Source: Methanobrevibacter sp. (GTDB lineage: Archaea > Methanobacteriota > Methanobacteria > Methanobacteriales > Methanobacteriaceae). Taken from it: a stretch of DNA of 64,000 bases. Positions within the stretch are counted from its first letter, which is position 1. The number at the start of each line of letters is the position of its first letter. Where the stretch lies: positions 12,464 to 76,463 of the forward strand of contig JAILDN010000004.1 of NCBI GenBank assembly GCA_024689425.1. The letters are read 5' to 3'. Of this stretch, positions 557-50,082 are shown in pieces. Both the position numbers and the translations under genes were made by a program. The notes below the pieces were generated by a model. That model did no database searches, was not told the DNA's origin, and saw nothing but the letters and a program-made list of their open reading frames with translations.

Positions 557-564
557 GAAATTCA

Positions 565-583
565 TTACTTATCAAATGCTCTT
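565..583 (+). promoter_or_regulatory. Dispersed 19-bp motif, copy A (TTACTTATCAAATGCTCTT), upstream of nrdD
   Basis: Identical (19/19) to the reverse complement of 49998-50016; also matches 12123-12141 and 27031-27049. Function is inferred, not known. Confidence 0.6.
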
Positions 584-765: not shown

Positions 766-3084
766 ATGGAAAAAACTACAGAAATCGCAAATAGTTTAAA
801 TAAATCCGTTAAAATAAACGTAGAAAAAAATAACGGAATTACAGAAAGATTCAGTTATGAAAAGTTATTAAAATCATTAATAATGGTTGAAACCCCATTC
901 TTTGAATCTGATAAAATTGTAGCTACAGTTGTATCATCATTATATGATGGAATAACTACAAAGGAAATTAAAAAAATAGTTTACGAATGTTTAGAAGATA
1001 TTGACGGTGAAATTGCAAACAAATACTTAGCAAGCACCCAGTTAAAAGTACGTACTTCAAGAGATACAATTGAAGCATTTGACTTATCTAAAATTGCAAA
1101 TACTTTAATTCAGGAAACTGGTGCTAGCCAAGAAACTGCTTTTGAAATTGCAACTGAAACCTGGAAAGAACTCAAAAAATTAAATGTTGAATACTTAACC
1201 GCTCCAATGATTAGGGAAATGGTTAACACTAAACTTATTGAATACGGATTAGAAGACTTAAGAAGCCGTTACACTCGTTTAGGTATTCCAGTTTATAACA
1301 TTACCTCTTTAATCGAAAATGGTAACAGAGATAATGCAAATATGATTCACAACCCGGAAAGTATCCATAAACATGTAGCAGACGAAGCATTAAAACAATA
1401 TGCGTTACTTAAAATGCTTCCAGCAAGATTAGCTGACGCACACATGTCCGGGGACATTCACATTCACGATTTGGAATTCTTCGCAGGAAGACCTTTAAAC
1501 TGTATGCAACATGATATCAGAACTTTCATCAAATACGGTCTTAAAGTAGACGGTACAGGTGACCACACCTCCATTGCAGGAGCACCAAACCACATGGAAA
1601 CTTTAATGAACCACACTGGTGAAATCATGCTTGCAGCTCAACAAAACATGTCCGGAGGACAAGGAATGTCCCTTTGGAATGTATTTGTAGCTCCATTTGC
1701 AAGAGGAAGAACTTACGATGAAATTAAACAATCCGTTCAAATGCTTATTTACAACTTAAACATGGCTTACGCAGCCCGTGGATCCCAAGTACCGTTCACA
1801 AGTATGGCACTGGAATTCGGAGTTCCAAACTTCTTGAAAGAAGAAACCGCATACGGACCAAAAGGTCAAGTGGTTGGAACTTACGCTGACTTTGAAAAAG
1901 AAACCAGATTAATTCAAAGAGCATTCACTGAAACTTTACTTGAAGGTGACAATGAAGGAAAACCTCATTTATTCCCAAATACTATCTACACCTTACGTGA
2001 AGAAACAATGACCAGTGAATACGAAGAAGATATCCGTTTAGTTCACGAATTGTCTGCAAAATACGGTTCATCCTACTTTGTAAACATGTTGGCTGATTAC
2101 AGAGGAGACATGGCTAACTACATGGGATGCAGAACCTGTTTACAAGACAACTGGACTGGTGACTGGGATCAAGATTGTTTAAGAACCGGTAACCTTGCAT
2201 ACGTAACTTTAAACCTTCCTAGAATAGGTTACCAATCCAAAGATGAATCCCAAGTATTCGAATACTTAGATGAATACATGGATTTAGCTACTGAAACTTT
2301 AATGCTCAGAAGAGAACAAGGTTTAAAATGTTTAAATGATTTCCACATTTTACCATTCTTGAAACAAAGAGTAGCTGAAGATTCATACTACAGAATACAA
2401 AATTCAACCTTATCATTCGGTTTCGTTGGACTTAACGAAATGTTATTATCATTATTCGGTGAAGGTATTGAAAACCCAGATGCAAACAAATTCGGTATCA
2501 AATGTCTTGAATACATAAATGAAAGAGCAAATCAATTGAAAGATGAAACTGGACTCAGATGGTCTGTTTTACAAACCCCTGCTGAATCCACTGCTTACAG
2601 ATTTGCAACTCTCGATAAAAAACAATTCGGAGACCAAGCTATCGTACAAGGAGACAGCAATGCTAACTACTACACAAACTCTTCTCACGTACCGGTAGAT
2701 ACCAATGCATCATTAATTGAAAAGATCAAAATAGAAGAACAATACCACCCATTAACTCCTGGTGGACACATCTTCCATGCATTCATGGGTGAATCATACT
2801 CTGATCCTGACTCATTAATGAGCTTAACAAATAAAATTGCAAGAAAATCCAATATCGGATTCTGGGCTTACAGCTCAGCTTTAAGTTTCTGTCTTAAATG
2901 TAAAACCTTAATGAAAGGATTAAATAATACTTGTCCTACTTGTGGTGAAAGCGAAGATGTAGAATGGTACGACAGAATCACTGGTTATGTACAACAAGTT
3001 GGTCGTGCAAAATCCGCATCCGGTGGTTGGAACCCAGGTAAACGTCAAGAATTAATTGATAGAAGAAGATTTGAAGATAACTAA
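766..3084 (+). CDS. nrdD: Anaerobic (class III) ribonucleoside-triphosphate reductase with two N-terminal ATP-cone domains
   Basis: HIHDLEF, finger-loop YMGCRT, PAESTAYRFA, YYTNSSH, C-terminal CxxC..CxxC and glycyl-radical motif DRITGY. Confidence 0.96.
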   Translation: MEKTTEIANSLNKSVKINVEKNNGITERFSYEKLLKSLIMVETPFFESDKIVATVVSSLYDGITTKEIKKIVYECLEDIDGEIANKYLASTQLKVRTSRDTIEAFDLSKIANTLIQETGASQETAFEIATETWKELKKLNVEYLTAPMIREMVNTKLIEYGLEDLRSRYTRLGIPVYNITSLIENGNRDNANMIHNPESIHKHVADEALKQYALLKMLPARLADAHMSGDIHIHDLEFFAGRPLNCMQHDIRTFIKYGLKVDGTGDHTSIAGAPNHMETLMNHTGEIMLAAQQNMSGGQGMSLWNVFVAPFARGRTYDEIKQSVQMLIYNLNMAYAARGSQVPFTSMALEFGVPNFLKEETAYGPKGQVVGTYADFEKETRLIQRAFTETLLEGDNEGKPHLFPNTIYTLREETMTSEYEEDIRLVHELSAKYGSSYFVNMLADYRGDMANYMGCRTCLQDNWTGDWDQDCLRTGNLAYVTLNLPRIGYQSKDESQVFEYLDEYMDLATETLMLRREQGLKCLNDFHILPFLKQRVAEDSYYRIQNSTLSFGFVGLNEMLLSLFGEGIENPDANKFGIKCLEYINERANQLKDETGLRWSVLQTPAESTAYRFATLDKKQFGDQAIVQGDSNANYYTNSSHVPVDTNASLIEKIKIEEQYHPLTPGGHIFHAFMGESYSDPDSLMSLTNKIARKSNIGFWAYSSALSFCLKCKTLMKGLNNTCPTCGESEDVEWYDRITGYVQQVGRAKSASGGWNPGKRQELIDRRRFEDN

Positions 3085-10710: not shown

Positions 10711-10900
10711 TTTTTTTGAACCTCTCCGGCTTAAAGAAGCCGGAGATTCTTAGGCCATGCCTATTGTTTCGTCAAAACATTTCCATTCATAATGATATAA
10801 GAATTTGCCTTGACCAATAGGCATGAAATCTACTAAGCATAGCACCGTTGAACCAGCGGCGCGTAGACCTTCGTCTAAAATATTTTTTGCAGCATTAACA
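10696..10900 (-). ncRNA. Predicted TnpB omega/reRNA: tnpB 3' end plus right end, with a flank-derived guide (AAAAACUAUCUUUCUUCAAU); 5' boundary approximate
   Basis: Inferred from established TnpB biology and the TCAA end at 10716; the scaffold was not folded computationally. Confidence 0.5.
10723..10746. repeat. Right-end subterminal hairpin TCTCCGGCTT-AAAG-AAGCCGGAGA
   Basis: Perfect 10-bp stem at the foot of the tnpB stop codon. Confidence 0.9.
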
Positions 10901-12018
10901 TCCCTTTGAAGAATGCTATGGCAGTGCGGACATTCCCACACCCTTTCATCACAATCTAAGTCATGGTTGATTTCTCCACAGACATTGCACTTTTTGCTCG
11001 ATGGAAACCACCGATCGATTTGTATAAATTCACGGCCATACCATTGGGCTTTGTATTTTATCATTTCTATGAGTTTGCCCCATCCAATTTCATGTATGCT
11101 TCTGCTTAAATTGCGGGAACGTATCATTCCTCGGATGTTTAATGTTTCCATGGCTATGAATTCGCAGTGTTTGACTATGTTGTAGGATATTTTATGGTAA
11201 TAATCAAGAACTACGTTGTTTTTCTTGTTTATCCATCGGTGGAGTTTTTTGAGTGTTTTTTTCCAGTTGGATCCATTCTTTTTTTGTCGGGCTATTTTTT
11301 GCTGGTAGTATTGTATTCTTCCGTTTATTCTTTTCAAGTCAGGTTTAGGTATGACTTTGCCATTGGAAAAGGTTAGGAAGTCTGTTAGTCCGACATCTAT
11401 GCCTACATATAATCCAGAGTTCTTGAATTCTTCTCTTGGTTGTATTTTTTCTAGTTCGTAGACTATGCATATGAACCAGCGTCCATTTTCTTTTATGATG
11501 GTGGCTTCCTTGATTTTTCCATCAATGTCTCTTTTATATTTGACTTTGATGTATCCGAGTTTATTTAAGCGGAACAGGTTTTCTTCCCATCTTAAAGTAC
11601 TTTTCATACCTTCTTTGGTAGAATATTCGTTGTTTCTCAATGTAATGGAGATTACGGGATTCTTTTTTAGTGATTTGAAATGTGGACGTCCAGTTCTATT
11701 ATCATAGAATCCGTTGTAGGCTTTTATCAAGCGGTCAGTAGAGGCTTGAAGACATGTGGATTCAGCATTTTTAAGGAATGGTTTTTGTTTTTTAAGGTTT
11801 TTTAATATTTTTTGTGTGTATATGCGATCTACTTCCGATTCTGTGCATATTCCAAGCTTGACTAGGTTTTCACGGTAAATACTTACTTCCAATGTTTTGT
11901 TGAAAACATAACCTGTGGCACGGAAATTGAAATTCAATTCCCCTTCTAAATCCTTATCAGGGAAAAATTCAATTTTATCAGTCAAAATAAAAGTTTTTCC
12001 ACACATAAAAAAACACAC
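10750..12018 (-). CDS. tnpB: TnpB RNA-guided endonuclease (start GTG 12018 or ATG 12006)
   Basis: RuvC-I GIDVG, RuvC-II AMETL, zinc finger SSKKCNVCG..WECPHC, RuvC-III RDVNAAKNI; P.FKS motif. Confidence 0.95.
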   Translation of the reverse strand: MCFFMCGKTFILTDKIEFFPDKDLEGELNFNFRATGYVFNKTLEVSIYRENLVKLGICTESEVDRIYTQKILKNLKKQKPFLKNAESTCLQASTDRLIKAYNGFYDNRTGRPHFKSLKKNPVISITLRNNEYSTKEGMKSTLRWEENLFRLNKLGYIKVKYKRDIDGKIKEATIIKENGRWFICIVYELEKIQPREEFKNSGLYVGIDVGLTDFLTFSNGKVIPKPDLKRINGRIQYYQQKIARQKKNGSNWKKTLKKLHRWINKKNNVVLDYYHKISYNIVKHCEFIAMETLNIRGMIRSRNLSRSIHEIGWGKLIEMIKYKAQWYGREFIQIDRWFPSSKKCNVCGEINHDLDCDERVWECPHCHSILQRDVNAAKNILDEGLRAAGSTVLCLVDFMPIGQGKFLYHYEWKCFDETIGMA

Positions 12019-12122
12019 ACATCCTTTTATTATTATTATTTCATTTTTTTTTATAAGAACATTAAATTAACTACCATTCTTATAAATAAAAATTAATAAG
12101 ATAATATATAAAGAAATTATCC

Positions 12123-12141
12123 AAGAGCATTTGAAAAGTAA
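12123..12141 (-). promoter_or_regulatory. Dispersed 19-bp motif, copy B (18/19), inside the IS upstream of tnpB
   Basis: Minus strand TTACTTTTCAAATGCTCTT, then 10 nt, then TTTATATA. Confidence 0.6.
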
Positions 12142-12193
12142 TATTTAAATAAAAACTAAAAAAAATATTCGAATGTCCTTAAAGTGCAATTCA

Positions 12194-12217
12194 TCTCTGG
12201 CTTAAAGAAGCCAGAGA
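12194..12217. repeat. Left-end subterminal hairpin TCTCTGGCTT-AAAG-AAGCCAGAGA with outer GTGCAA/TTGCAC stem
   Basis: Differs from the right-end hairpin by one compensatory C-G to T-A pair; outer arms at 12184-12189 and 12222-12227. Confidence 0.9.
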
Positions 12218-12348
12218 ATTCTTGCACAACAATGTTAAACTATCCTTATTTTTAATTTAATTAATTATTGTAAAAACCACCTTCTTTTAAAAAAATTTAT
12301 ATAACAATAGTTATATAAGAATAAATACAATTATCATGAGGGTCATCT

Positions 12349-25160: not shown

Positions 25161-26990
25161 TTATTTTTTAACTCTCACAACTGCTTCTTTAAAGAAATCA
25201 GGTACTAAAAATTTATAGATTGGACTTTTAAGTATCATATTTATATCCGCATCTAAAATGTAAGTATAACAATAATCATCTTCAGCACGCATTCCCCTAC
25301 CATATGCCTGCATTAATGTCATTACTGTTTTATATGCATACCATTTTTGGTCGGTTTTCCTTCTCATATTAATTTGTTTATCTCCAAGATATGGGAATGG
25401 TATTTTATAGATTACTTGAAATCTACACTTATCATAGGGTAAATCAACCCCTTCACTCATTGAAGGAGAAACTAAAACAAGCGGATTTTCATCTTTTTCA
25501 AAATAATCCAACATCTGCTCCCTATTAGCGGAATTATGAGAAATCAACCTTGAGTTATGTAAATTATCATTGATGAAATGCTGACATTTATAACTATTGG
25601 TGTGAATTAATCCTTTTTCATCTTTATGTTTTTCAAGTATTTCTTTTAATATAGGGATTGTTTTAGGAGCGGTTTTATTAACCCTGCTTTTAGACATTTT
25701 TCCCGCTAAATTTAAAATTATAGGCCTTTTTTCTTTTGTAAATGGGCTATCAACTTTAATATGATAAACTTCTTCTGGAGATAAACCTAACCATTTTGAG
25801 AACAAATTACTGGATAAAATCGTTGCACTCATGAAAATAACAACATCCCCATATTTGAGTAAGCTATTTTGAGCATAATGATGAACTCTCAATGGTTTAA
25901 ATGATACACCTGCTTCATTAGTGTCAATGACCCAATTTTCAGGTTCTTTTTCCAGATTATTCTTAAGTGTTTTGAGTCTTGAAATGGTTGAATGGATTCT
26001 TTCTGCCTTATTTTTTGATAAATCCTTAATGTCAATGTCTTCATAAGCTTCCCCAATAGCTGCAATTTCCATGAGCCAATCTTCTAATTCCCCATCTTTT
26101 AAAGTTTCTTTAGATATTACTTTACTAATGTCTTTTTCTAAACGGTGATTATATAAATTTACTTCCATCGTGTTCATTAATTTGGATTCTATATTATGCG
26201 CTTCGTCTAAAATAAGTAATGAGCGAGTTCCAAAATGTTTTACATAATTTAACTCTGCAATAGCATAATCATAATTCATTAATGTGATGGGGGAGTTTAT
26301 TGCATTTGCTTTTTGATTCCAATAATGACAATGAGAATGAGATTGATAAAACACCGCTCCACCGAAAGAATCTTCAAAAGCCAATTCAGCATCCAATGTT
26401 GGATTTTTAGCAACACCATAAGGGCAAAAAAATTTGCTGGAAGTCGGAGAGGTTTTACAAGTTCCCATATCACAAGTAACATCCAATCCATCGTTTAAAC
26501 ATGAGAAATTAGATCTTCCTTTAACTAACGGAAATTCAAATTCATCACAGTATTGGGACTGTAATTGTTTTGTCATAGTTAAAATATAAGCAGATTCATA
26601 CATTTTAGCTAATGTTGTAGCAATTGCGGACTTACCGGTCCCAGTTCCTGCTTCTAAAATAATATATTTATATCCTTTTCTAATTGCATCATGAATATCC
26701 TGAATAATCTCAAACTGACCTACTCTAGGCTCGTCAAATGGAAAATTTTCAATGATTTCATCATCAATATGGGGGTACTCATCCTTTAGTTCAAGGAACC
26801 TATTTACTTGCATTTTATGGTCTTCAATAGAATAAGACTCTTGAATCTCATCATCCAAAATAGACTTTGTAATAGGCTTTGAAAATGAAAATAGATTAGT
26901 AGAACCCTCATTTTCAAAAGATTCCTTATTTTTACAAATACAATTGCTTTTAAGCATACCACAATTTGGACAAAACATAGAATTTGACAT
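25161..26990 (-). CDS. XPD/DinG-family SF2 helicase with N-terminal Cys4 motif; likely start 26990
   Basis: FPFDEPRVGQ (Q motif), EAGTGTGKS, Cys-rich Fe-S-like region, LDEAHN, EGVDLP, QAYGRGMR. Confidence 0.88.
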   Translation of the reverse strand: MSNSMFCPNCGMLKSNCICKNKESFENEGSTNLFSFSKPITKSILDDEIQESYSIEDHKMQVNRFLELKDEYPHIDDEIIENFPFDEPRVGQFEIIQDIHDAIRKGYKYIILEAGTGTGKSAIATTLAKMYESAYILTMTKQLQSQYCDEFEFPLVKGRSNFSCLNDGLDVTCDMGTCKTSPTSSKFFCPYGVAKNPTLDAELAFEDSFGGAVFYQSHSHCHYWNQKANAINSPITLMNYDYAIAELNYVKHFGTRSLLILDEAHNIESKLMNTMEVNLYNHRLEKDISKVISKETLKDGELEDWLMEIAAIGEAYEDIDIKDLSKNKAERIHSTISRLKTLKNNLEKEPENWVIDTNEAGVSFKPLRVHHYAQNSLLKYGDVVIFMSATILSSNLFSKWLGLSPEEVYHIKVDSPFTKEKRPIILNLAGKMSKSRVNKTAPKTIPILKEILEKHKDEKGLIHTNSYKCQHFINDNLHNSRLISHNSANREQMLDYFEKDENPLVLVSPSMSEGVDLPYDKCRFQVIYKIPFPYLGDKQINMRRKTDQKWYAYKTVMTLMQAYGRGMRAEDDYCYTYILDADINMILKSPIYKFLVPDFFKEAVVRVKK

Positions 26991-27030
26991 TAAAAATATA
27001 TTAGTATAGTATACTATAAATAAATTATAT

Positions 27031-27049
27031 AAGAGCATTTGATAACAAA
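27031..27049 (-). promoter_or_regulatory. Dispersed 19-bp motif, copy C (17/19), upstream of the helicase
   Basis: Minus strand TTTGTTATCAAATGCTCTT, then 10 nt, then TTTATA. Confidence 0.6.
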
Positions 27050-27066
27050 TATTTAAAAGTGATTAT

Positions 27067-46341: not shown

Positions 46342-46364
46342 AATCGTGAAAATAATTCACGATT
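46342..46364 (-). terminator. Hairpin AATCGTGAA-N5-TTCACGATT overlapping the radA stop
   Basis: 9-bp inverted repeat followed by a T-rich tract on the minus strand. Confidence 0.6.
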
Positions 46365-47298
46365 AATCAACAATACCATCATTAGTAATTTTGAAAACGC
46401 ATTCACCTTCAGGCAAATGAGGGCTGTCTACCAAACGAGCAATTCTTTTTCCAGCAAGTCCTTTTTTAAGCCAAATTCTGTAAGTGGATGCGTGTCCTAA
46501 AACGTGACCACCAATAGCTTTAGTTGGACTTCCAAAGAAGGAATCTGGTTTAGCTTGAACTTGGTTTGTAATAAATACCGCTACATTGTAAGTATTAGCA
46601 ATTTGTTGAAGTGAATGTAAGTGTTGATTTAATTTTTGTTGTCTAACAGCCAATGATTCTCTTCCAACATATTCTGCTCTGAAATGAGCCATTAATGAAT
46701 CTACGATAACTAATTTAACATTAGTTCCAGATTGAATAAGTTCGTTAATTTTATCAACCATTAGAATTTGATGAGATGAGTTAAAAGCACGAGCAACATG
46801 AATTTTTTGTAAAACTTCTTGAACATCTAATTCAAAACCGTTGGCAATTTGTTCAACTCTTTCAGGACGGAAAGTATTTTCAGTATCAATGAAAACACAT
46901 TCACCACCAAGTCCACCTTGTTCTACAGGTAATTGAACAGTTACTGCTAATTCATGAGAAATTTGACTTTTTCCAGATCCAAACTCCCCAAATACTTCAG
47001 TGATTGCTTGAGTTTCAATACCTCCAGCGATTAAATCATTGAAACCTTTACTTCCAACAGAAATGTGGCCAACTTCTTTTCTTCTTTCCAAAACATCAAA
47101 TGCTGTTTCAAAATCAATATTTTCAGCTTTACGTGCAGCTTCAATAACTTTTTCAGCAACACCTTCACCGATTTCTGCTTTAACTGATAATTCTTTAGGA
47201 GTAGCAGTGGCTAATCTCATCATATCAGCAAATCCTGCATCTCTTAATTTTTCTGCTGTTTTTTCACCAACACTAGGTAAATCTTCTAATTCTACCAT
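46363..47298 (-). CDS. radA: DNA repair and recombination protein RadA
   Basis: [44 protein letters not shown]; no intein. Confidence 0.97.
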
Positions 47299-47319: not shown

Positions 47320-49935
47320 TTAATAATATTTATTTAAAATTTTCCTTGGGTTAAGTCTAATTCTATCGTTATACTCATCATAACTAACATTAGCAATTAC
47401 TTCAACATTTAAACCTTCCAAATCTTCGATTTTACCATCCAAAATACCTGGATCTTCAGAAACTAATTCAACAATTTCATCTTTAGGCATTTCTAGAAGT
47501 TCTTCAACTAAATTATCAAAGAAAGTAAGTCCAATCTCGCCAGTGTCATCCACTAATGTAGTTGGAATCATGATTGTGACATTTGGATCTTCGATTTCTT
47601 CACCACAATAATCACAAATGACTGAATCTTCAAAAGAGTCATTACTAATTGTATTATTACAGTTTGGACATTTTCTAAGAAGTAAATGATCACTGACTAC
47701 ATCAGTTAATTGACCTGTAACACGAACATTAACATCATTATCCTCAATAGCTTCGATTTCTTTAGGAGCATAAATAGCTTCTCTAAGCTCTTCATAAGAA
47801 GGTAATTTCATTAATTCATCTTCACTTGGTTTTACAATAGCTGATGAACCTGATATATTCAATGTTAATTGGTCATTATAGATATCGACTCTAGGATTTT
47901 GAATCTTGATTGGTTCGCCAAGTTCAAATTCTCTTTTTGCATTGTCTCCCCATAATGATACTCTAATAGCTTGTGAATTATCGGCAATTTCAATATTTCT
48001 CAATGAATATTTACTACCATCATCTCTTTCTAATTCACGTACATCAAACACTTCAAAGACTCTTCCGACAACATAAATATTTTCTTCAAATTCCTCTACT
48101 TCAGAAATTTCACGATATTCATAAATCATTTTTTCTAATGATTCGAATGAAGGAAGGAATTTGGCATCTTCTTCAGATAATTTAATTATTCTTGATGATG
48201 AACCAATATTTAAATTAATATTTTCCATTCCAAATCTTACTCTTGCATTTTCTATTAAATAAGCTTCTGAGACTTGGAGAGGAATTTCAGATTTATCATC
48301 CCATAAAGATAATTGAACAATTCCACTACCATCGGAGAATAATGCGGAACGTACATGACCTGTACTTCCATCAGAAGGTCTTTCAAAAGTCCTAACATCT
48401 CCTACAGACATTATTCTTCCCATGACATCAGCATCAAAATTATCTTCTTCAGCTAAGGTCACTTGTTCAAGTGTAATTGGCTGTAATGTTTGCTTAATTG
48501 ATTCAAAAATTTCTAAATCATCATCAGACAAGTTTTTAGGATTAATTGTTATTTGAGTGGAGAAATTAGTATTGATAGAATGGCCTTCTTCAACATATTC
48601 ATCATAAATAACATTTCCACCAATTAATTTAACGATATCCCCTTTGTTAATATCTAAACCGGCAGCGTCACCCCATAAAGTAACTCTGATTGAATTGGTA
48701 TCGTCGGTTAAATGGAAGTTTCTCAATTGACCTTCACTTTGGTCTGATTTTCTGACGAATTTTTTAATATCTTGAATTTTGGTTACAACACCCATTATTG
48801 CCACATCGGTGTCACCATCATCCAAATCATCGATTTTTGAAAACTCATGCACAAATTCAGGAACATCGTAATCTCCTTTAATAATCCTTCCATCCCAATG
48901 GCTAAGAGATTTTTCGTCATTTCTTTCTCTAACTTGGGCTTGAAGGATTTTTACTGTGTCACCATCGTTTAAATCAAGAGATTCTATTAAATCAACATTC
49001 TTATTCCATAATGTGTAAGAAATAGTGCCTGATTCATCTTGAAGTTCAAGAGATGCTACTTGACCCTCTTTACCATTTTTATTATAAGATCTAATTGGAG
49101 GAATTTTAATGATTCTTGCAATCACATTTACTTTGGTATCTGGTTGAACATCTTTAATTTGAGTAATTTCTTCAATATATTCTGGATATTTACTAGGGTC
49201 AGCATCTGTAACTTTTTTAAATACAGATCTAGGCCTCATTGTTGCTTCAAGTCCTGAAAATCCATCTTTAATGTCAACACCTTCAACTCTTACAATATCT
49301 CCTTCTGAAATATTTTTTAGGTGTTTAATATTTTCAGTCCATAATACAACACGGATTTTTCCGGTGTTATCCTCAACATCCACATTACAGACTTTTCCTG
49401 TTTTATTTTTGCGTGTTGTAAAAGACCTTGGATTGCTTATTGACATTACTCTACCAGTGAAAGATTGGTCATTATCTCCATTTTCAAGTAAACCAATATT
49501 ATTTTTTGCTGAATATTCTTCTCTTTCAGTTAAAGATTCATTTTCTTGAGTAATGCCTAATTCACCAATGATTTGATCAACAATACTTTCCTCATTAATG
49601 AATGGATTATCTTTCTGTTGAATTTTAATTTCATTAATTCTTGAAAGGAAATCCTCTTGAGAAATATAATCTTTCACTTTTTCATATTTTTCTAAAAGTA
49701 AATCACTCATGACAATTTCGTCATCATTTAATTCTTCTTGCTCTTCTCTTGAGAGATCATGTGATAGCATATCGTCAACAACTAAATAACTATCAACAAC
49801 TTTTGCTGCGATATCTACTTCATCATAATCTGAATCAACATAATCTGGACGAATTTCATCCATTTTAGATAAAAATTCTTCTTCAGAGAGTTTATCTTTA
49901 ACTTTTTCGTATTGTTCTAAAATTTCTTTTTCCAT
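47320..49935 (-). CDS. rpa: Replication protein A (multi-OB-fold ssDNA-binding protein, C-terminal zinc finger)
   Basis: About five repeats of the D.SG.I..TLW OB motif; CPNC..CDYC; upstream of radA. Confidence 0.9.
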   Translation of the reverse strand: MEKEILEQYEKVKDKLSEEEFLSKMDEIRPDYVDSDYDEVDIAAKVVDSYLVVDDMLSHDLSREEQEELNDDEIVMSDLLLEKYEKVKDYISQEDFLSRINEIKIQQKDNPFINEESIVDQIIGELGITQENESLTEREEYSAKNNIGLLENGDNDQSFTGRVMSISNPRSFTTRKNKTGKVCNVDVEDNTGKIRVVLWTENIKHLKNISEGDIVRVEGVDIKDGFSGLEATMRPRSVFKKVTDADPSKYPEYIEEITQIKDVQPDTKVNVIARIIKIPPIRSYNKNGKEGQVASLELQDESGTISYTLWNKNVDLIESLDLNDGDTVKILQAQVRERNDEKSLSHWDGRIIKGDYDVPEFVHEFSKIDDLDDGDTDVAIMGVVTKIQDIKKFVRKSDQSEGQLRNFHLTDDTNSIRVTLWGDAAGLDINKGDIVKLIGGNVIYDEYVEEGHSINTNFSTQITINPKNLSDDDLEIFESIKQTLQPITLEQVTLAEEDNFDADVMGRIMSVGDVRTFERPSDGSTGHVRSALFSDGSGIVQLSLWDDKSEIPLQVSEAYLIENARVRFGMENINLNIGSSSRIIKLSEEDAKFLPSFESLEKMIYEYREISEVEEFEENIYVVGRVFEVFDVRELERDDGSKYSLRNIEIADNSQAIRVSLWGDNAKREFELGEPIKIQNPRVDIYNDQLTLNISGSSAIVKPSEDELMKLPSYEELREAIYAPKEIEAIEDNDVNVRVTGQLTDVVSDHLLLRKCPNCNNTISNDSFEDSVICDYCGEEIEDPNVTIMIPTTLVDDTGEIGLTFFDNLVEELLEMPKDEIVELVSEDPGILDGKIEDLEGLNVEVIANVSYDEYNDRIRLNPRKILNKYY

Positions 49936-49997: not shown

Positions 49998-50016
49998 AAG
50001 AGCATTTGATAAGTAA
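49998..50016 (-). promoter_or_regulatory. Dispersed 19-bp motif, copy D (19/19), upstream of rpa-radA
   Basis: Minus strand TTACTTATCAAATGCTCTT, then 8 nt, then TTTATATA. Confidence 0.6.
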
Positions 50017-50082
50017 TCGGCTAAAAAAAATATGATTAAAATCGTTTAAATTTTAAATAGATTAATAATAATATGGTGATTA

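Follow-up and report, generated by a model that had tools for sequence, protein, structure and literature searches.

A box common to DNA-repair promoters lies upstream of tnpB in most tnpB elements of the archaeal genus Methanobrevibacter

An insertion sequence in the genome of a rumen methanogen of the genus Methanobrevibacter raises the question of why tnpB, the gene of an RNA-guided nuclease, should be preceded by a block of DNA that closely resembles the promoter of a host helicase. The two 43-bp blocks lie in the window, by which we mean the whole stretch of 64,000 nucleotides analysed here, and, compared on the same strand, share 37 of 43 letters (Table 1). Each 43-mer of the 1.75-Mb draft genome, on both strands (3.5 million in all), was scored against the tnpB block, and the helicase block was the top match, so the similarity first described in the original prediction is borne out as the best available in this genome. 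The runners-up scored 34 (the topoVI-B promoter), 33 and 31 and are nearly all promoters with the same box, and the unrelated background stops at about 28-29, plus one chance 31. Because the background ends at this level, the match between tnpB and the helicase is far above chance and AT-richness does not explain it; chance similarity of the two blocks is thus ruled out by the scan. A generic repeat or MITE is also ruled out, as there is no likeness past the module (blastn finds no similarity between the two loci outside it) and no second left or right end in the genome. The box does recur genome-wide, solely as a selective promoter element of DNA-metabolism and mobile-element genes.

Table 1. 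Features of the tnpB element and of box-bearing promoters in the window
Feature	Position	Strand	Details
tnpB-only IS200/IS605-family element, complete	10716..12233	-	1518 bp; IS1341-type; ends from alignment to copies in other genomes
Word TTTAAC 5' of left end	12234..12239	-	In 6/6 family-1 copies with an aligned left end
Left-end subterminal hairpin	12194..12217	-	TCTCTGGCTT-AAAG-AAGCCAGAGA, read from the sequence
tnpB promoter block	12107-12149	- (minus-strand gene)	Letters TATAAAGAAATTATCCAAGAGCATTTGAAAAGTAATATTTAAA
tnpB box	12123..12142	-	Gene-oriented ATTACTTTTCAAATGCTCTT
tnpB TATA box	12105..12112	-	TTTATATA; 11 nt 3' of the box core
tnpB	10750..12006	-	418 aa, ATG at 12006; Pfam OrfB_IS605 (PF01385) and Cas12f1-like_TNB (PF07282)
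Structured region, tnpB 3' end and right end	10716..10860	-	Right-end hairpin 10723-10746, terminal GGTTCAA
Helicase promoter block	27015-27057	-	Letters TATAAATAAATTATATAAGAGCATTTGATAACAAATATTTAAA; box 27031-27050 (ATTTGTTATCAAATGCTCTT), then TATA-like element
XPD/DinG-type helicase	25161..26990	-	Pfam DEAD_2 and Helicase_C_2; NCBIfam DinG/YoaA/rad3
Box of rpa-radA operon	49998..50017	-	rpa 47320-49935, radA 46363-47298; radA directly behind rpa
Box of nrdD	564..583	+	nrdD 766-3084; box at nrdD also in genome G014

The letters shared by the two blocks follow the plan of a promoter class, the repair-regulon type, that we define within this analysis: a box of 19-20 nt (gene-oriented ATTACTT[T/A]TCAAATGCTCT), a spacer of 8-11 nt and a TATA box. 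About 20 promoters of this Methanobrevibacter genome carry the box. Read on the minus strand, the tnpB block consists of TTTAAAT, ATTACTTTTCAAATGCTCTT, an 11-nt spacer and TTTATATA, and its box has one mismatch to the 20-mer consensus. With at most one mismatch, the core TATCAAATGCTCT is found at about 20 intergenic sites, each directed at the next gene and 35-190 nt upstream of it. A looser core gives 35 sites, 24 of which have a TATA-like box within 20 nt downstream, mostly at 7-13 nt. The spacing between box and TATA is 8-11 nt, with a mode of 9, in host and IS promoters alike. We further note that the 12-mer AAGAGCATTTGA has five copies in the genome, four of them inside the window, where base composition leads to an estimate of about 0.4 expected. 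The box is asymmetric, has a single orientation and keeps a fixed distance to TATA; it is not palindromic, which is unusual for the site of a dimeric regulator.

Among the genes behind the box in this genome, those of repair and replication are rpa-radA, nrdD, the XPD/DinG-like helicase, Hel308, uvrA, uvrD, topoVI-B and a mutS-like ATPase. The others are tnpB, an integrase, RhuM, a SocA/Panacea-like gene, DUF763, DUF6932, DUF2283 and small unknown proteins; a PfkB kinase and a formyltransferase (with the box 194 nt away) fit a repair regulon poorly. The small box-linked proteins have no match to a DNA-binding family in Pfam, PHROGs or NCBIfam. The true start of the helicase is the ATG at 26990 (ATGTCAAATT), which is conserved in relatives. 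The longest helicase ORF begins at 27038 and would overlap its own box, and from the genus-conserved start (MSNSMFCPNCGMLKSNCIC...) the N-terminus of the protein is rich in Cys, as small zinc-binding motifs typically are.

Outside the window, boxes of this genome at C72:5864-7556, C54:8447, C32:60811 and C48:3036 precede genes of mobile-element or defence type. Two of them, 1.7 kb apart, precede a 114-aa unknown protein and the SocA/Panacea-like gene; the remaining genes of this kind are the integrase, the RhuM-family gene and DUF6932, and the integrase and the SocA-like gene are boxed in the sister species G014 too. Integrated elements may plug into the same regulon as tnpB.

The box is also conserved in the host promoters of the genus. 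Of 22 other genomes from the genus, kin that are not independent of each other, 21 have it at a fixed position 5' of rpa, with the typical letters ATTACTTTTCAAATGCTCTCTCTAATACTTTATATA, and most of these genomes have it 5' of the orthologous helicase as well. The exact 14-mer TTWTCAAATGCTCT has 17 copies in this genome and 2-32 copies in each of 24 other genomes of the genus, and the reversed control of the same 14-mer has 0-1 copies per genome. Species in which tnpB has no match (G014, G016, G019, G007 and G005) have 12-19 exact copies. In one of these, the sister species G014 (box loci there include L250, L251, L252 and L260), the genes behind the box are topoVI-B, a YdjM-family membrane protein, hjc, a Hef-like helicase, nrdD, a PfkB kinase, an integrase, the SocA-like gene, an Mre11-like phosphoesterase, uvrD, the mutS-like gene, rpa, XPD and an XPD paralogue. 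Genes of recombination, repair and replication therefore make up a core that stands behind the box in both of these distant species of the genus. As a side observation, the YdjM-family protein of G014 offers a parallel to E. coli, where YdjM is a LexA-regulated gene.

Related variants of the box are recognisable in two other genera of the order. In another genus of the order, with higher GC (L109-L113, L052-L058), related but differing words (TTTTCTGTGGCACTCTCTAAACTTATATAG; TTTCCAGGACCTCACCAAGTCTTTTATAGA) occupy the same place before TATA in the helicase and rpa promoters. The pattern of variants suggests an order-wide regulon whose operator has drifted. Within the genus, TTTTCAAATGCTCT is the commonest form of the box and the usual one in most other species. 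In the present genome TTATCAAATGCTCT is the prevailing form of the host boxes (15 of 17 exact copies), and the tnpB and uvrA boxes read TTTTCAAATGCTCT. In G018, similarly, the tnpB loci mostly have the TTTT form and the host genes the TTAT form, a difference that may mean that the IS arrived recently or that this position tolerates change. Taken over the genus, the distribution of the sequence indicates that the box belongs to the host.

The fixed distance to TATA, the asymmetry and the single orientation are core-promoter traits, and they would also be expected if the box were a general promoter-strength element or the site of an alternative basal factor, so that its sharing would imply strong expression and not co-regulation with repair. 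A few metabolic genes behind the box, such as PfkB in both this genome and G014, would fit such a role. We consider it unlikely, however, since the box is carried by only about 1% of genes, repair, recombination and replication dominate the set in two distant species, and no highly expressed genes were seen among the box matches. A regulatory box of repair-type promoters accounts better for this gene content, and the question becomes how such a box relates to the transposon.

The ends of the element were set where its similarity to copies in other genomes (L018, L020, L060, L114 and L116) begins and stops. These boundaries rest on the comparison of IS copies because no empty site is available, the region upstream of fdhD not being syntenic in five relatives. 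On the tnpB strand, the left end reads ATTGTTGTGCAAGAATTC right after TTTAAC and continues into the hairpin, which related copies conserve and whose sequence recurs almost unchanged in the right-end hairpin. The sequence beyond TTTAAC differs in each family-1 copy. TTTAAC is the probable target site or TAM, the TAM role being assigned by analogy with IS200/IS605 biology. The fdhD promoter region (12295-12330, TATATAACAATAGTTATATAAG) begins just beyond the left end; five relatives have it conserved in front of their fdhD, and the insertion left it undisturbed.

The box and the TATA box sit inside the element, between the left-end hairpin and the start codon of tnpB, which confirms the position that had been claimed for the block, and transcription would start near 12080. 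The 227-nt leader has no credible ORF, just 23-aa ORFs across the hairpin, and no Arc-like or RHH gene. A scan for sigma-70 promoters and terminators was uninformative, the host being an archaeon. TnpB matches the ISDra2 TnpB structures 8bf8/8exa (E 2e-38) and conserves the RuvC triad (D204, E287 and D369) together with the zinc-finger cysteines C340, C343, C359 and C362 (CxxC...CxxC). The last ~145 nt of the element are conserved at the nucleotide level among copies. RNAalifold on eight copies gives a common fold of 62 pairs, 15 of them with compensatory changes; an Rfam search of the element returned no guide-RNA family, only a chance miRNA match (E 0.87). We read this 3' region as a putative guide-RNA or omega-RNA-like scaffold, its predicted fold being as expected of one. 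As far as its sequence tells, the element looks functional: nothing is lost from the nuclease triad or the zinc finger, and the structured 3' region is conserved.

Is the box a peculiarity of this copy? Relatives of the TnpB, 71-84% identical, sit at unrelated loci in other Methanobrevibacter genomes, the nearest (84% aa) being in a M. thaueri MAG (the closest named record) in a different genomic context. The related copies in other genomes carry box and TATA and their flanks differ, which answers the question, raised by the original prediction, of whether other copies of the IS carry the block. More widely, 31 tnpB loci were compared in the genus, at 26-100% identity to the query, and 24 of them have box and TATA on the tnpB strand, 55-250 nt upstream; one of the box-less loci is cut by a contig end. 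Clustering at 60% identity gives 12 clusters, 10 of them from the genus, and eight of these 10 carry the box. Box and TATA are 9 nt apart at 18 of 22 tnpB loci, as they are at rpa (17 of 18), and 11-12 nt apart in the window element's own family. Three things come directly from the sequences: the module itself, its place within the IS, and its conservation both at host promoters and, in this genus alone, at the majority of tnpB elements.

The original prediction placed the block where tnpA would normally be. This was not upheld: in the complete genome G018, a tandem tnpA-tnpB element has box and TATA in the 167-nt gap between its two genes. The module is thus the promoter of tnpB and no stand-in for tnpA, because in G018 it sits between the two. 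The locus in question (L079, G018:C1:364445-366520) is an autonomous IS605-type element with ends like those of the window element, and with this arrangement its two genes may be under separate control. A tnpA-tnpB pair of G023 is preceded by a degenerate box whose spacing is correct. Two copies of the window element's IS family, L018 (G004) and L115 (from a goat-ileum MAG), have about 228 nt 5' of tnpB a box broken by a change and a 2-nt insertion (TTTCATTTGCTCTCT), along with a weakened TATA box, and may be decaying or silenced.

In the present genome tnpB has a single copy, the Y1 transposase TnpA (PF01797) has no match anywhere (the genome is 94% complete; its relatives G018 and G023 have tnpA-tnpB elements), and the promoter is of host type. 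A lone tnpB of this kind could be on its way to exaptation as a host repair or regulatory factor, the early step of domestication that had been proposed. We find this very unlikely and the proposal did not hold up. The ends and the RuvC triad are intact, the target word TTTAAC and the guide-RNA-like structure are conserved, the locus is not syntenic in five relatives, and the nearest relative lies elsewhere. Moreover, the same promoter is found in evidently mobile relatives that are multi-copy, G004, G018 and G023 giving 15, 10 and 19 matches, some of them fragments. The tnpB of the window is better understood as a transposon gene with a promoter of the host's repair type.

Transposable elements are known to spread regulatory sites, and several box-linked genes are those of mobile elements (the integrase, RhuM and the SocA-like gene), so one may ask whether the host promoters instead received the box from fragments of the IS, the transposon having seeded the regulon. 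This direction of transfer is highly improbable, given that the box holds orthologous positions at rpa and the helicase across the genus with variants in other genera, that species without a tnpB match have their 12-19 exact boxes, and that no further remnant of a left or right end was found elsewhere in this genome.

A special tie between the helicase and tnpB is not supported. A comparison of all box sites (595 pairs) does put tnpB and the helicase highest (37/43), and the two also share TTTAAAT 5' of the box and AATTT within the spacer, as one would expect if the IS had recently captured the helicase promoter by recombination, or the reverse, and the blocks were copies of each other; this is the least probable of the explanations considered, as other pairs follow close behind (tnpB with topoVI-B 34, with the SocA-like gene 33), IS copies in other genomes have box and TATA in differing flanks, with TTTAAAT missing in L018, L019 and L020, the helicase promoter has kept its place throughout the genus, and the similarity stops at the module. 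The three extra matches of the pair come from the AT-rich flank TTTAAAT, which is not conserved in other IS copies. Promoters of this one class, about 20 in number, form a graded series of similarity with the pair at its head, and the two loci have no private relation. What stands of the original prediction is the broader statement that the element captured or converged on a host promoter of the DNA-repair type: the match comprises a module of box, spacer and TATA, and it extends to the whole genus.

How far does the association reach beyond the genus? As a control, a single genome for each GTDB species was scanned, which gave 80 TnpB loci. Six of these come from records named Methanobrevibacter, and five of the six have the box upstream; the sixth (L117) matches exactly a locus assigned to another GTDB genus. 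Not one of the 74 loci outside the genus has it. Ten other genera of the family contributed 22 full-length tnpB loci, and the box is absent from all of these too. IS promoters at these 22 loci give no sign of tracking each host genus's own variant of the box, even where rpa has one: the sister genera g9 and g13 carry the box at the host rpa promoter, yet their examined tnpB loci lack it. Since g9 and g13 combine an rpa box with box-less tnpB loci, the box, on these sequences, is not obligatory for tnpB in box-using hosts.

A FastTree phylogeny of 125 TnpBs places the box-bearing ones in several deep subclades of a Methanobacteriaceae clade. TnpBs of other genera that lack the box lie among them, and the tree calls for at least eight changes of state. 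The quick tree, with its long branches, is compatible with one gain followed by losses or with several gains, and it shows the box trait to follow the host genus, as inferred from the sequences sampled, rather than TnpB descent.

These observations suggest that most tnpB transposons of the genus probably use a repair-type promoter, by which the nuclease would be switched on together with the host repair machinery. The explanation that we find best for the whole, and consider likely, is that a box for a host factor sets tnpB expression in step with the repair genes. Binding by such a factor, co-regulation, induction by damage, the sign of regulation and the selective reason are what we infer from the pattern, and they are worded below as a model.

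Archaeal activators usually sit upstream of TATA, abutting the BRE. In the model, a host-encoded sequence-specific factor would bind the box just upstream of BRE and TATA, and would more likely be an activator than a repressor, a preference that we hold with modest confidence. Activation is favoured because the box ends 8-11 nt upstream of TATA, the usual site of archaeal activators. The factor would set the transcription of tnpB along with that of the guide RNA, which the 3' end of tnpB would supply on the same transcript. The regulon may respond to damage, to replication or to the cell cycle. The factor would keep tnpB in step with rpa-radA, nrdD, XPD, Hel308, uvrA, uvrD and topoVI-B, and in the sister species with hjc and the mre11-like and hef-like genes.

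Such timing may serve the element. After excision, TnpB cleaves the vacated donor site, and the element is regained from the sister copy by homologous recombination (bioRxiv 10.64898/2026.09.24.754181). Expression timed to the availability of RPA, RadA, Mre11 and Hjc would give more homing success, a cheaper break and fewer lethal breaks. Because restoration after the TnpB cut needs homologous recombination, timed expression would favour retention of the element. With one tnpB and no tnpA match in a genome that is 94% complete, this retention function cannot operate here unless a transposase is supplied from elsewhere or lies in an unassembled part. A broader version of the model, which we offer tentatively, is that rpa-radA, mre11, hjc, hef, hel308, xpd, uvrA, uvrD, topoVI and nrdD form an SOS-like repair regulon under one factor, and that several deep TnpB lineages recruited or retained its box so that cutting and homing would take place only when the recombination machinery is up.

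Other systems offer partial parallels. In bacteria, the transposon-encoded ribbon-helix-helix protein Arc represses promoters of IS605-family elements (bioRxiv 10.64898/2026.09.24.754181). The likeness lies in a protein site (here predicted) at the native promoter inside an IS605-family element, governing tnpB and, for Arc, also tnpA. Arc is, however, encoded by the transposon, acts in bacteria and represses, whereas the present box belongs to a host regulon of about 20 chromosomal promoters and lies upstream of TATA in an archaeon. The Arc-regulated IS605 has a small RHH gene, and the window element is without an Arc-like ORF.

In its logic, the closest analogue is the bacterial LexA (SOS) regulon, which controls integron integrases and the induction of prophages and ICEs. 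By analogy, the likeness to these LexA-wired elements would be a host damage-regulon operator in the element's own promoter. They control a recombinase, whereas here an RNA-guided nuclease would be controlled, and the box is unrelated to the LexA box; we know of no LexA in this archaeon. A third comparison is with TldRs, nuclease-dead TnpB-like repressors that have lost their nuclease residues and transposon ends and act as regulators. They resemble the present case in tying a TnpB relative into host gene regulation. Here, in contrast, the TnpB triad and the transposon ends are intact, there is no synteny in five relatives, and TnpB is the regulated gene.

A link between damage and this IS family is also known. 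Irradiation is reported to trigger the transposition of ISDra2 in Deinococcus radiodurans (Pasternak et al. 2010, PMC2806898). ISDra2 belongs to the same IS family as the window element and has a TnpB. The cause is reportedly the single-stranded DNA made during genome reassembly. The link to damage there reportedly runs through the supply of substrate and the induction of tnpA; it is not known to involve a host operator at tnpB, and no equivalent of the box is known from ISDra2.

Keyword literature searches found no prior account of this regulon, nor of tnpB promoters that carry a host operator, and searches with the letters of the box returned only unrelated eukaryotic tRNA-fragment and primer papers. 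To our knowledge, the known case of control of TnpB and its guide RNA in the native host is the transposon-encoded Arc repressor in bacteria, and we know of no DNA-damage response regulator in this group of archaea. The box offers a handle on an apparently undescribed DNA-repair regulon. For annotation, it suggests that box-linked genes of Methanobrevibacter, integrases and toxin-antitoxin-like genes among them, may respond as a group. For TnpB, a putative host operator is present in most tnpB promoters of one archaeal genus and is common to the genes that would repair TnpB's own break, which results in a testable model of host-timed homing. If true, the model would add to TnpB biology a host-timed layer of control that has not been described before.
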